A stretch of 64,000 bases of DNA from Candidatus Eiseniibacteriota bacterium (GTDB lineage: Bacteria; Arandabacterota; Arandabacteria; Arandabacterales; Arandabacteraceae): the NCBI GenBank assembly GCA_043808325.1, contig JAZDEY010000059.1, forward strand, positions 11,218 through 75,217, given 5' to 3'. Below, piece by piece: positions 57,408 through 59,521 of this stretch. The notes under the pieces are model-generated. The model ran no database searches. It had not been told where the DNA came from and saw only the letters and a program-made list of their open reading frames with translations. The translations under genes and the position numbers were made by a program. The first letter of the stretch is position 1, and each line of letters begins with the position of its first letter.

Positions 57408-58151
57408 TTACTGCGCATGAATCGCTGCCGCGAATTCGCGCAGCAGCTCGATCGAACCATTCTTCTCTATGATATCTCCGGTAACCACCAATGACGCCCC
57501 AGCCTGGACCATCTCGCCGGCCAGGCGCGGGTCCCTTATGCCTCCGCCCACGATGACCGGGATTGAAACGTAGCTCGCAACGGCCTTTATCATTTCAAGC
57601 GGCACGGGCTCCCGGGCCCCGCTGCCGGCCTCCAGAAATACCGATTTCATTCCAAGATACTCCCCCGCAAGCGCGTGCGCCATCGCAATCTCAGGCTTGT
57701 TCCTGGGAATCGCGAGCGACTGACTGATGAACTGGACCGATGTGGTCTGCCCGGATTCCACCAGCATGTATGCGACCGGGATCACCTCGAGCCCGTGACG
57801 CCGAACGATCGGAGCGGCCTTCACATGCTCCCCGATCAAGAGGTCGGGATTTCTTGCGCTCACCAGGCTCAGGAAGAGCAGGGCGTCCGCGTGGCCCGAG
57901 ACCTGTCCGGAATCACCGGGGAAGATCACCACCGGCACTTCCGAATTCTGCTTGATCGCTCCGACCGCTTGATCGAAGTCATACCTGACACAGATGCTCC
58001 CGCCCACGAAGATGAAATCGGCATGCTCGCTCGCGATCCGGGCCTCTTCGCCCAGATCATTTGCGGATGACCTGTCGGGATCAAGCAGGACCGCATAGGC
58101 CGCGCGGCGCGATCTTATGACCTCGAGCATGCCTTGATACACACCTGCCAT
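57408..58151 (-). CDS. Geranylgeranylglyceryl phosphate (GGGP) synthase family, group II-like
   Basis: LLDPD, FVGGS, FPG..GQVS..ADALLFLSL.S.RNP..LIG.HV.AAP, YMLVESG, LEAGSGA and VGGGIR motifs. Confidence 0.9.
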   Translation of the reverse strand: MAGVYQGMLEVIRSRRAAYAVLLDPDRSSANDLGEEARIASEHADFIFVGGSICVRYDFDQAVGAIKQNSEVPVVIFPGDSGQVSGHADALLFLSLVSARNPDLLIGEHVKAAPIVRRHGLEVIPVAYMLVESGQTTSVQFISQSLAIPRNKPEIAMAHALAGEYLGMKSVFLEAGSGAREPVPLEMIKAVASYVSIPVIVGGGIRDPRLAGEMVQAGASLVVTGDIIEKNGSIELLREFAAAIHAQ

Positions 58152-58152
58152 T

Positions 58153-59328
58153 TCAGACCCCTACCAGATACTTGGCCAGCCGGAATGCGGTCGGCATCGA
58201 CTTGGCCAAGAACTTGAGCAGCGGAAGCGGATCGCTCCTCACGGCCGCCCCCTTGGAGACAAACTCCCCGATCAGGGAGATCATCCGTGAGAGTTCCTTG
58301 TCGGTCATACCAGCGAGTACCCGTTTCAGAGCGAACCGCATCTTTCTGTTCTTCAGACTGGAACGCAATGCCTCCGCAAAACGCTTTTCCACTATAGCAG
58401 GTTCTTGTTCCCCAGTCGCGTAAAGAAGCGCGTGGCTTCCGGCGAGAGCTCCGGATTCCATCCCCGGGACTATTCCCGCACCCGACACCGGATCGGCCAC
58501 CCGGGCCGCGTCGCCGGCCAGAAAAACGCCGCCGCAGGCCTTGTAGGGCCTCAGCTCCGAAGGCACGCCGCCAACCACAGTTCCGAGGATTCGGGCCCTG
58601 GGTGCTCGCGCCTGCTTAAACCTCATGAGATACTCCATGGGCGTCAGGCCTTGGTGCCCATCAGTTGCGATTCCCACACCCATGTTGGCCACCGAATCAC
58701 CCTTGGGAAACACCCAGGCATATCCGCCGGGGGCAACGTCCCTTCCCAGATAAAACTCAACCCGCGTCGGGTCGAGATCGATCGAGGCTAAAGTGTACTG
58801 AGCACAGGAGACCACGTCCTCGCGACTGAGGGCGCCTTGGAACCCAATCTGCCGCCCGATGCGCGACTCTATGCCATCGGCGGCAACGACCGCACCGCAT
58901 CGCAGGGAGCGCCCGATCTTCCCGCTCGTGACGTCGATTGCCAAGCCCCCGCCGGATGTCGGTCTTACGGGGCCTGCCTCAGCACCGAGCCAGATTTCAA
59001 CACCTTCTGCGGCAGCACGTTCGGCCAGGCCGCGCAGGAAGATCTCTTTGTTGAGGATGAAACCACAGCTCGGTTCCTTGACCTCTACGCAAGTGTGATC
59101 GGGCGCATGAAACCGTATGCCATCGATCGACTGCGCGATCCACTCGGGCCTGAGGCCGACCAACCTGGCAATTCCCCGCGACCCGATACCTTCAGCGCAA
59201 ACGATGCGCTCGGCGACTCTGGCAGATCGCTCGACAAGGGCAACCCTCCCGCCACCCCGGGCCGCCCCTACTGCAGCCCAGATGCCGGAGCATCCGGCCC
59301 CGACTACCACCACGTCAAAATCACGCAA
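58153..59328 (-). CDS. Geranylgeranyl reductase / digeranylgeranylglycerophospholipid reductase-like flavoprotein
   Basis: DVVVVGAG.SG, CAEG, ADG.ES, APGGYAWVFPKG (PxxYxWxFP) and GDAA...DP.SG.GI motifs. Confidence 0.88.
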   Translation of the reverse strand: MRDFDVVVVGAGCSGIWAAVGAARGGGRVALVERSARVAERIVCAEGIGSRGIARLVGLRPEWIAQSIDGIRFHAPDHTCVEVKEPSCGFILNKEIFLRGLAERAAAEGVEIWLGAEAGPVRPTSGGGLAIDVTSGKIGRSLRCGAVVAADGIESRIGRQIGFQGALSREDVVSCAQYTLASIDLDPTRVEFYLGRDVAPGGYAWVFPKGDSVANMGVGIATDGHQGLTPMEYLMRFKQARAPRARILGTVVGGVPSELRPYKACGGVFLAGDAARVADPVSGAGIVPGMESGALAGSHALLYATGEQEPAIVEKRFAEALRSSLKNRKMRFALKRVLAGMTDKELSRMISLIGEFVSKGAAVRSDPLPLLKFLAKSMPTAFRLAKYLVGV

Positions 59329-59521
59329 GCGCGTCTTCCCCTATCAAGCCTGCCGGGCATACCCTGACACAGGCCGCGCACTTGGAGCACGTATCCAGGT
59401 CTATCCTAACGCCGTCCCCTTCCAGGTTTATCGCCTGCCCGGCGCACACCGCGCTGCACACGCTACACTTCCAAATGCAGGGTATCTCCAGGTAGGAACC
59501 CGGTGCGGCTTCACTTGACAA
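59321..59521 (-). CDS. Small 2[4Fe-4S] ferredoxin
   Basis: CIWKCSVCSAVC and CSKCAACVRVCP motifs in 66 aa; overlaps alaS and the reductase. Confidence 0.82.
   Translation of the reverse strand: MSSEAAPGSYLEIPCIWKCSVCSAVCAGQAINLEGDGVRIDLDTCSKCAACVRVCPAGLIGEDALA

Follow-up and report, generated by a model that had tools for sequence, protein, structure and literature searches.

The stretch of DNA analysed here, 64,000 nucleotides (nt) from the genome of a sediment bacterium of the candidate phylum Eisenbacteria and referred to throughout as the window, lies on contig C59 of a metagenome-type assembly (3.14 Mb, 83 contigs, 98% complete). Directly behind the alanyl-tRNA synthetase gene alaS, it carries three closely packed genes for a small ferredoxin (fdx), a geranylgeranyl reductase (GGR) and a geranylgeranylglyceryl phosphate synthase (GGGPS), and it is the possible role of this cassette in an archaeal-like route to isoprenoid glycerol ethers that is considered below. 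The features are as follows, the cassette genes standing before their neighbours (DGGR, digeranylgeranylglycerophospholipid reductase; FAD, flavin adenine dinucleotide; ORF, open reading frame).

59321-59521, minus strand: ferredoxin, 66 amino acids (aa), read as 2x[4Fe-4S] (Fer4_10 and Fer4_7 profiles; eight Cys)
58153-59328, minus strand: GGR, 391 aa, FAD-dependent, archaeal DGGR-like type (profiles, motifs, solved relative)
57408-58151, minus strand: GGGPS, 247 aa, group II (bacterial IIb-like), PcrB family (profiles, solved relatives)
59511-62135, minus strand: alaS, alanyl-tRNA synthetase (tRNA-synt_2c 624 bits, tRNA_SAD, DHHA1)
62132-62794, minus strand: recX (ORF, between recA and alaS)
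62822-63985, minus strand: recA (ORF, bacterial run upstream of the cassette)
56309-57334, minus strand: rmlA_long, long-form glucose-1-phosphate thymidylyltransferase (TIGR01208 448 bits, cut-off 320)
55437-56297, minus strand: rmlD, dTDP-4-dehydrorhamnose reductase, context only (TIGR01214 290.6 bits, cut-off 224)

The initial annotation of this locus had named the three products, had noted how tightly their genes are packed, and had placed them within a bacterial recA-recX-alaS run. Each of these points holds: the identities are all borne out by Pfam and NCBIfam profiles, recX and recA are found upstream of alaS, and the ORF coordinates reproduce an 11-nt overlap between the alaS stop and the ferredoxin start (59511-59521), an 8-nt overlap between the ferredoxin and GGR genes (59321-59328), and a 1-nt gap (position 58152) from the GGR stop to the GGGPS start.

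The synthase, the reductase and the ferredoxin

The synthase lies above the family cut-offs of PF01884 (PcrB; 142.4 bits, cut-off 23.9), NF003198 (285, cut-off 247), TIGR01769 (212.5, cut-off 161.55) and TIGR01768 (171.3, cut-off 113.25). Its scores on the group I models TIGR04146 (43.6 bits) and TIGR04147 (26.7 bits) are far under their cut-offs, and it reaches 52.8 bits (cut-off 169) on NF003199, which we take to be a model of the PcrB-type subfamily. Its best solved relative is 4jej (192.7 bits), presumably the Flavobacterium johnsoniae GGGPS, followed by 4mm1 (168.4 bits), as against 37.7 bits for the group I structure 2f6u; with this proximity and the group II-type profiles passed, the group II assignment of the initial annotation is upheld. 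The published classification places the Flavobacterium structure in group IIb, that of Methanothermobacter in group IIa, and PcrB in group Ib (PMC9385802). The window enzyme differs from that of F. johnsoniae at Phe172 and in its gene setting with a GGR and a ferredoxin. The heptaprenylglyceryl phosphate synthase PcrB of Bacillus subtilis, also a bacterial maker of an isoprenoid glyceryl ether, shares the family PF01884 with it; the low scores on NF003199 and 2f6u set the window enzyme apart from this group I protein.

The proposed chain-length limiter (Ile90 in Flavobacterium, Val86 in Methanothermobacter) corresponds in the alignment to Val84, which would fit a pocket for C20 rather than C35 chains. 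Of the residues for which a part in glycerol-phosphate binding and catalysis has been proposed, matched to the published positions by motif rather than by number, Y128 and E174 are kept, as are the phosphate loops G176-S-G178 and G202-G-G204. At position 172 (codon 57636-57638) there is a Phe where most relatives have Tyr; a Phe is found here in all Eisenbacteria rows of the alignment, in 7 of 12 from Ignavibacteriota and in 4 of 12 from Zixibacteria, and Glu174 is replaced by Asp in many rows from the Fibrobacteres-Chlorobi-Bacteroidetes (FCB) group, Cloacimonadota among them. Phe172 may bear on the choice between glycerol-1-phosphate and glycerol-3-phosphate, but the idea that it marks a lineage-specific change of stereospecificity was dropped in view of how often Ignavibacteriota and Zixibacteria have it too.

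The reductase passes PF22578 (GGR_cat; 79 bits, cut-off 27) and TIGR02032 (166.3, cut-off 158.8). Among more specific models it scores best, at 155 bits, on NF041160, the model for DGGR of Thermoplasmatales, as against 87.9 bits for BchP/ChlP (cut-off 343.3), 51.4 for ChlP and 64.1 for MenJ (cut-off 700); FixC is not among the 25 families listed for it. In the PDB, where no chain of the FixC/EtfC type matched it with an E value of 0.001 or lower, the solved structure closest to it is the DGGR of Thermoplasma acidophilum, 3oz2 (164.7 bits, residues 3-379 against 4-387). These comparisons agree with the initial annotation in making the protein DGGR-like rather than of the MenJ, ChlP or FixC type. 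The motifs PGGYAWVFPKG and CAEG, on which that annotation had relied, are both present, and four motifs are shared with 3oz2: GxGxxG (G10-A-G-C-S-G15), the Cys of C-x-E-G (C44-A-E-G), P-x-G-Y-x-W-V-F-P-K-G (P200-G-G-Y-A-W-V-F-P-K-G210) and G-D-A-A-R-x-x-D-P (G272-D-A-A-R-x-x-D279-P). Over 25 rows P200-G-G-Y, W205, F207-P-K-G210, G272-D273 and D279 are invariant and C44-A-E46 nearly so, which may be compared with the motifs listed for the GGR family as a whole, namely GxGxxG, a conserved Cys, PxxYxWxFP and the GD...D FAD motifs (PMC10821996). By the equivalog test for Thermoplasmatales (155 bits where 780 is the cut-off) the window protein is not an ortholog of the T. acidophilum enzyme; judged by profile scores, it resembles DGGR but belongs to none of the named archaeal orthologous groups.

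In a quick-method tree of 63 GGR rows, rooted on the second GGR paralog of the host and with most rows carrying no taxon names, the cassette GGRs of Eisenbacteria form a clade of 28 rows (Shimodaira-Hasegawa-like approximate likelihood ratio test, SH-aLRT, 100) on a long stem. This clade is nested in one of 41 rows (SH-aLRT 97) together with a GGR from TA06 and those of the more distant genomes G021 and G028; GGR rows from Ca. Syntrophoarchaeum lie outside it. The closest named homologs of the window GGR are from 'Candidatus Eisenbacteria bacterium' (P0020 and P0063); P0020 and the GGR of G007, a genome of the same family, are practically identical.

The second paralog (402 aa; contig C83:61986-63008, locus L030:1159-2367, minus strand) is BchP/ChlP-like (124 bits, against 67 for DGGR) and adjoins genes for a polyprenyl glycosylphosphotransferase and a sugar dehydratase/epimerase. 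From these matches it is a likelier candidate for a polyprenol reductase than is the window GGR.

The ferredoxin matches Fer4_10 (36.9 bits, cut-off 25.5) and Fer4_7 (31.3, cut-off 27). Its first cluster motif is Cx3Cx2Cx3C, with the first Cys shifted, and its second is the canonical CxxCxxCxxxCP; C19, C22, C26, C45, C48, C51, C55 and P56 are invariant in 15 rows, and C15 nearly so. With its eight conserved cysteines the protein is read, from its sequence, as a 2x[4Fe-4S] type.

Several observations bear on the partner of this ferredoxin. A prediction of the GGR-ferredoxin complex that included FAD and the two clusters scored 0.90 (runs of 0.91, 0.87 and 0.90), the best of three controls scoring 0.00; in the calibration, 58 out of 80 solved complexes but only 2 out of 110 mismatched pairs come up to this mark. 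The calibration holds roughly here, as the model was given purpose-made alignments and riding ligands, which fall outside it. The predicted local distance difference test value (pLDDT) of either partner is at least 84, and the runs agree in at least 98% of contacts. The predicted interface involves GGR residues 43, 152-155, 159, 165-176, 229-231 and 251-256, residue 43 adjoining the conserved Cys44, and ferredoxin residues 17-29, 33, 50 and 53-58, cluster cysteines included. A solved look-alike of the complex was not found by sequence in the PDB, where one may exist, the ferredoxin profile giving matches only to generic polyferredoxins and HdrA-type proteins; a FixABCX-type structure is a possible look-alike. 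Natural fusions of the two proteins were observed as well. Genome G028 has a ferredoxin-GGR fusion of 472 aa with an N-terminal 2x[4Fe-4S] domain (L039:1273-2691, plus strand), and the Latescibacteria protein P0112 is another, of 487 aa, the only Fer4-bearing protein among the 120 GGR homologs listed. In genome G021 a canonical dicluster ferredoxin of 57 aa lies between alaS and GGGPS (L024:8624-8797, minus strand), with the GGR on another contig. The 8-nt overlap, the fusions in the same order, the ferredoxin at the G021 junction and the complex model tie the ferredoxin to GGR, and it is proposed that it would serve as the electron donor of GGR.

There is an archaeal precedent for such a pair. 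The genes of archaeal GGRs often have a 4Fe-4S ferredoxin gene beside them, and the Methanosarcina acetivorans enzyme needs its own (PMC10821996). The two systems are alike in that each has a DGGR-type flavoenzyme and a small 4Fe-4S ferredoxin encoded at the same locus, which in M. acetivorans is the specific in vivo reductant (Isobe/Ogawa 2014, as cited in PMC10821996 and PMC7852524). They differ in that the window host is bacterial, its genes overlap and lie inside an operon with a tRNA synthetase and GGGPS, the first cluster motif is Cx3Cx2Cx3C, and the function of the pair is a predicted one. The physiological reductant of a GGR is known for one archaeon only (as cited in PMC10821996); the operon ferredoxin is a ready candidate for this missing component.

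Conservation and origin of the gene order

The relatives compared were 12 genomes of the same family, three of the same order, two others of the same class and 23 more distant. Strong GGGPS matches are present in 11 of the 12 family genomes (the exception is 57% complete), in all three of the order, in both of the other class members and in 5 of the 23 more distant; a GGR of the window type is present in 11 of the 12 family genomes (the miss again being 57% complete), in all three of the order and in neither of the other class members. Of 11 loci in relatives, 10 have the full gene order alaS-fdx-GGR-GGGPS-rmlA and the eleventh ends at a contig edge; this order is also found in genome G004 and in the contigs L048-L050 of metagenome-assembled genomes (MAGs), L050 being the same contig as that of G004 and L048 matching a contig of G007. 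All cassette loci keep the 8-nt overlap of fdx and GGR, and all Eisenbacteria-type loci keep rmlA_long downstream of GGGPS. The cassette is kept in every family or order relative with enough contig to judge, and since the same order recurs across relatives' loci the arrangement is not a matter of chance. The linkage whose absence from relatives the initial annotation had held would count against it is present in the family, the order and the named MAG contigs, and none of the other findings it had named as fatal, where these could be checked, was made.

The two genomes from the other order of the class have alaS-GGGPS-rmlA with nothing between the genes. In a tree of 100 GGGPS rows the 16 from cassette-bearing loci form one clade (SH-aLRT 99), so that a single change of state accounts for them. 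Because the cassette rows are monophyletic, the state changes once and the other order has the bare arrangement, the history is read as a single event, in which the fdx-GGR pair entered a pre-existing alaS-GGGPS junction within a clade of Ca. Eisenbacteria that has the rank of an order.

A related arrangement is seen in a contig from TA06 (L052:3404-5729, plus strand), in which a DGGR-like GGR (37% identity) immediately precedes GGGPS and an rmlA-like gene follows it, with neither alaS nor a ferredoxin gene at the pair. This looks like a second, independent linkage of GGR to GGGPS.

How widely GGGPS follows alaS was surveyed by comparing the GGGPS alignment with one genome per species, which gave 598 matching stretches with 562 relatives among them; of the 80 best, which were retained, 77 had at least 400 bp of upstream sequence and were counted. 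In 60 of the 77 loci alaS lies upstream on the same strand, in 50 of the 60 with a gap of no more than 400 nt. This is the case in Zixibacteria (12 of 12 loci), Ignavibacteriota (10/10), Latescibacteria (8/8), Bacteroidota (6/7), Eisenbacteria (4/4), Gemmatimonadota (2/2) and KSB1 (2/2), and in single loci from Kryptoniota, Fibrobacterota, GN15 and Effluviviacota, a span of at least 11 FCB-type phyla among the loci surveyed. It is not the case in Cloacimonadota (0/6), Fidelibacterota/Marinimicrobia (0/4), or the one locus each from Calditrichota, Lentisphaerota and TA06; in three of the Cloacimonadota loci (L079, L104 and L110) a UbiA-family gene of the digeranylgeranylglyceryl phosphate synthase (DGGGPS) type is upstream of GGGPS in place of alaS. 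A scan of the surveyed loci for Cys motifs in ORFs of at least 40 aa found ferredoxin-like ORFs upstream of GGGPS in L048-L050 only, and where the gap between alaS and GGGPS is large (L064, L070, L082 and L091) the inserted ORFs match neither GGR, ferredoxin nor DGGGPS. The pairing of alaS with GGGPS is old, common to most FCB-type phyla, and predates the insertion of fdx-GGR. The coupling of the cassette to alaS described in the initial annotation is therefore real at this locus, but it belongs to GGGPS (60/77 loci) and is not specific to the cassette. NCBI files the Eisenbacteria phylum under 'Bacteria candidate phyla', formally outside the FCB group; its GGGPS falls, by similarity, among FCB-type phyla.

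A possible ether lipid route and its alternatives

The initial annotation had found no recognisable DGGGP synthase or glycerol-1-phosphate (G1P) dehydrogenase in the window, and this stands, the one UbiA there scoring as a decaprenyl-phosphate phosphoribosyltransferase. It had also proposed that the genome be searched for a DGGGP synthase, and one DGGGPS-type UbiA was found, on another contig (C64:116277-117179). The genome has four UbiA genes (a MenA-like one, the phosphoribosyltransferase-like one of the window, one more, and that of C64), of which the C64 protein scores best on the DGGGP synthase models (NF009521, 152 bits) and is the sole match in the genome to the three Cloacimonadota UbiA proteins encoded next to GGGPS (30% identity, E 2.5e-28). 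A UbiA of this type is present in 10 of the 12 family genomes and, outside the class, in exactly the five GGGPS-positive genomes among the 23 (G021, G028, G032, G033 and G036; kin among these are not independent). The window UbiA (52762-53661, minus strand) was considered as a DGGGPS and set aside; it passes the decaprenyl-phosphate phosphoribosyltransferase model NF008977 (271.7 bits, cut-off 234) and is not matched by the Cloacimonadota DGGGPS-type proteins. Genes for the acyl glycerol-3-phosphate (G3P) route and for head groups are present (CdsA, 204 bits; two CDP-OH transferases; PlsY, 157.6; GpsA, 171.2). Polyprenyl diphosphate synthases number only two, a farnesyl diphosphate (FPP) synthase-like one (C68:7862-8881, minus strand) and a long-chain one adjoining the MenA-like UbiA (C31:47493-48626, plus strand). 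Candidate G1P dehydrogenases in relatives were rejected, those of G007 and G014 being PsrA-like iron alcohol dehydrogenases and that of G011 AroB.

These genes suggest, with a probability of about 0.6, an archaeal-like route to isoprenoid glycerol ethers whose chains are saturated by a ferredoxin-fed GGR. GGGPS would form the ether bond between glycerol phosphate and an allylic prenyl diphosphate, the latter most likely C20; the single DGGGPS-type UbiA of C64 would add the second chain; bacterial CdsA and CDP-alcohol transferases would add head groups; and GGR would saturate the chains with electrons from the co-translated ferredoxin docked on it. With the acyl-G3P route through PlsY and GpsA kept, any ether lipid would be part of a mixed membrane. 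The observations from which this route is drawn are the gene identities, the conserved order, the single insertion, the co-occurrence of GGGPS with the DGGGPS-type UbiA and the ferredoxin-GGR fusions, together with the predicted ferredoxin-GGR interface; we infer each enzymatic step, the chain length, the chirality of the glycerol phosphate (G3P, or G1P from another source) and any role as a bulk lipid.

A number of points weigh against this route. The saturated phytanyl glycerol ethers suggested in the initial annotation are a putative product, and the lineage is known here from sequence. The GGR is under every equivalog cut-off (NF041160, 155 of 780 bits; NF041080, 103 of 580; NF041385, 41.9 of 700), and because these are missed by far homology does not fix its substrate. 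Nor does GGR accompany GGGPS universally, since genomes G016 and G032 have no GGR-family match over cut-off and G017 has only a divergent one. In GGGPS, Phe172 replaces the Tyr of a Y-x-E motif that is called strictly conserved (PMC9385802). The C64 UbiA is below the NCBIfam cut-off (152 against 296 bits), is unlinked to the cassette and adjoins bacA. No CarS (PF01864) match was found in the 98% complete genome, and no G1P dehydrogenase, the only PF13685 match being a PurE-like frame. There is also no clear geranylgeranyl diphosphate (GGPP) synthase, as the C68 protein passes the FPP synthase model (339 bits, cut-off 275) and misses CrtE (336, cut-off 460); an aromatic residue stands at the fifth position ahead of its first Asp-rich motif, which we take to be a mark of FPP synthases. 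With neither a G1P dehydrogenase nor a clear GGPP synthase found, any assignment of backbone chirality and chain length is tentative. On the other side, in favour of the route, contigs of one sediment metatranscriptome match GGR (58672-58805, 1 mismatch), alaS and rmlA, and one spans the GGGPS/rmlA junction (57221-57448); these are a weak hint of transcription, being contigs only, with carry-over of DNA possible, and no meaning is attached to the parts of the cassette that have none.

Some of the same points would suit a simpler product. If GGGPS made a single prenyl glyceryl phosphate that GGR reduced and that was then dephosphorylated, acylated or glycosylated, the result would be a monoether serving as a minor or anchor lipid, and the unlinked, sub-cut-off UbiA beside bacA would have another role. 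Bacterial enzymes of the GGGPS family with a monoether end product are known, that of B. subtilis PcrB being an example, and sugar-nucleotide genes follow GGGPS in this class (rmlA_long, rmlD and a GmhA-like gene). This account has difficulty with the distribution of the DGGGPS-type UbiA outside the class, which coincides exactly with that of GGGPS (all 5 genomes that have GGGPS, none of the 18 that lack it, with kin not independent), and with the C64 protein being the sole match to the Cloacimonadota UbiA encoded beside GGGPS, a Ca. Cloacimonetes pair of this kind having made a diether in E. coli (PMC7852524), and it is accordingly held to be rather unlikely. The fdx-GGR pair might instead act on a different isoprenoid, such as menaquinone side chains or polyprenyl phosphate carriers, and lie beside GGGPS through a clustering of isoprenoid and envelope genes. 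GGR-family enzymes do reduce quinones and polyprenols (PMC10821996), the window GGR reaches no equivalog cut-off, and the same-strand run includes the decaprenyl-phosphate phosphoribosyltransferase-like UbiA, an ArnE/F-like transporter gene, ispE and prs. However, a better polyprenol candidate exists in the C83 paralog (BchP/ChlP-like and beside a polyprenyl glycosylphosphotransferase), the window GGR scores lowest on MenJ (64 bits), the insertion falls exactly between alaS and GGGPS, 1 nt from the latter, and is kept in every order member examined, and TA06 independently has a related GGR directly upstream of GGGPS; this substrate assignment is quite improbable.

That an archaeal fragment was joined to a bacterial contig in assembly or binning would be conceivable for a metagenome-type assembly in 83 contigs. 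However, G+C across the cassette region is even (0.56-0.62), the cassette genes overlap their bacterial neighbours, and the same order is found in at least 14 other assemblies and again in long DNA contigs from three further sediment runs, one of 6204 nt covering 56200-58997, so that an artefact is scarcely credible.

From the position of GGGPS behind alaS in most FCB-type phyla, a much wider version of the ether lipid route can also be formulated, in which isoprenoid glycerol ethers would be constitutive core lipids across the FCB superphylum rather than an oddity of Cloacimonetes, and one Eisenbacteria order would have captured an fdx-GGR module forming a stable heterodimer and yielding fully saturated chains. 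The backbone in this version would be G3P, with archaeal chains on a bacterial backbone, given that the search for a G1P dehydrogenase found none and that a Phe takes the place of Tyr in the Y-x-E motif. This version is speculative and rather unlikely. The conserved alaS-GGGPS operon of many phyla, for its part, argues for constitutive expression and offers a simple marker for surveys.

The narrower proposal, a GGR-saturated ether lipid route in this lineage, has a close published counterpart. Ca. Cloacimonetes have GGGPS, DGGGPS and GGR, with CarS and G1P dehydrogenase reported missing (Villanueva 2021, PMC7852524), other phyla of the FCB group and related candidate phyla have close homologs of both GGGPS and DGGGPS, and the two Cloacimonetes enzymes yielded unsaturated archaeol-phosphatidylglycerol (archaeol-PG) in E. 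coli (PMC7852524). The window genome likewise has a group II GGGPS, a DGGGPS-type UbiA, one or more GGRs and a full acyl-G3P route, and in both cases there is no G1P dehydrogenase and no CarS, bacterial CdsA being the presumed stand-in for the latter. The layouts differ. GGGPS is beside DGGGPS in Ca. Cloacimonetes, whereas in the window genome the two are on different contigs (C59 and C64) and GGGPS is linked to alaS, ferredoxin and GGR. Co-localisation of GGGPS and DGGGPS is restricted to Cloacimonetes among bacteria according to PMC7852524, and the present survey agrees, with the adjacency in L079, L104 and L110 among the best 80 of 562 relatives.

The idea of archaeal-like ether lipid genes in a bacterium, put forward in the initial annotation, was right in kind, but it had already been published for FCB bacteria (PMC7852524), and the locus is an extension of a published phenomenon, not the discovery of a new kind. 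The gene set was known; new are the lineage, the layout of an operon that includes a ferredoxin of its own, and the broad synteny of alaS with GGGPS. The Eisenbacteria lineage was not found in the literature in connection with GGGPS or geranylgeranyl, the main text of PMC7852524 being silent on it and its supplements possibly listing it. A bacterial fdx-GGR-GGGPS operon, ferredoxin-GGR fusions in FCB-type bacteria and the alaS-GGGPS pairing were likewise not found in the published literature, in a search without most subscription journals. The production of archaeal-type lipids by any bacterium is as yet unsettled, the published case consisting of genes and expression in E. coli. Saturation is the step missing from that co-expression, which gave unsaturated archaeol only (PMC7852524), and the clean single-insertion history allows saturated and unsaturated lineages to be compared.

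Neighbouring genes and further observations

Downstream of rmlD the run continues with genes for a GmhA-like SIS protein, a small ArnE/F-like transporter, udk and UbiA, and then with ispE, spoVG, prs and L25. A scan of 49000-64000 gave 7 promoter-like sites (4.3 in shuffled sequence, standard deviation (sd) 2.1) and 15 terminator-like sites (10.7, sd 3.3), neither above chance; the gaps between the cassette genes contain none of these sites, which accordingly mark no operon boundary. Many sediment metagenomes and one soil metagenome contain the stretch 56200-60400.

The window UbiA (52762-53661) shares its same-strand run with the ArnE/F-like transporter gene (54290-54757, minus strand) and prs (50112-51035, minus strand), which hints, from the gene matches, at an envelope pathway of the polyprenyl-phosphate-ribose type in this bacterium. 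Further along, at 40538-42862 (minus strand), there is a CDP-alcohol phosphatidyltransferase with a weak best match to archaetidylinositol phosphate synthase (43.8 bits, cut-off 180), neighboured by a 321-aa radical SAM protein (with sub-threshold SPASM- and MoaA-type matches) and a membrane protein with a VTT/DedA domain; a role of these genes in lipid head groups or lipid modification is possible from their matches. A SelA (selenocysteine synthase) match of 497.6 bits at 36501-38174 (minus strand) suggests that the organism probably uses selenocysteine. The SpoVG of the run, 215 aa (51189-51836, minus strand), has two matched SpoVG stretches and is a tandem-domain form.

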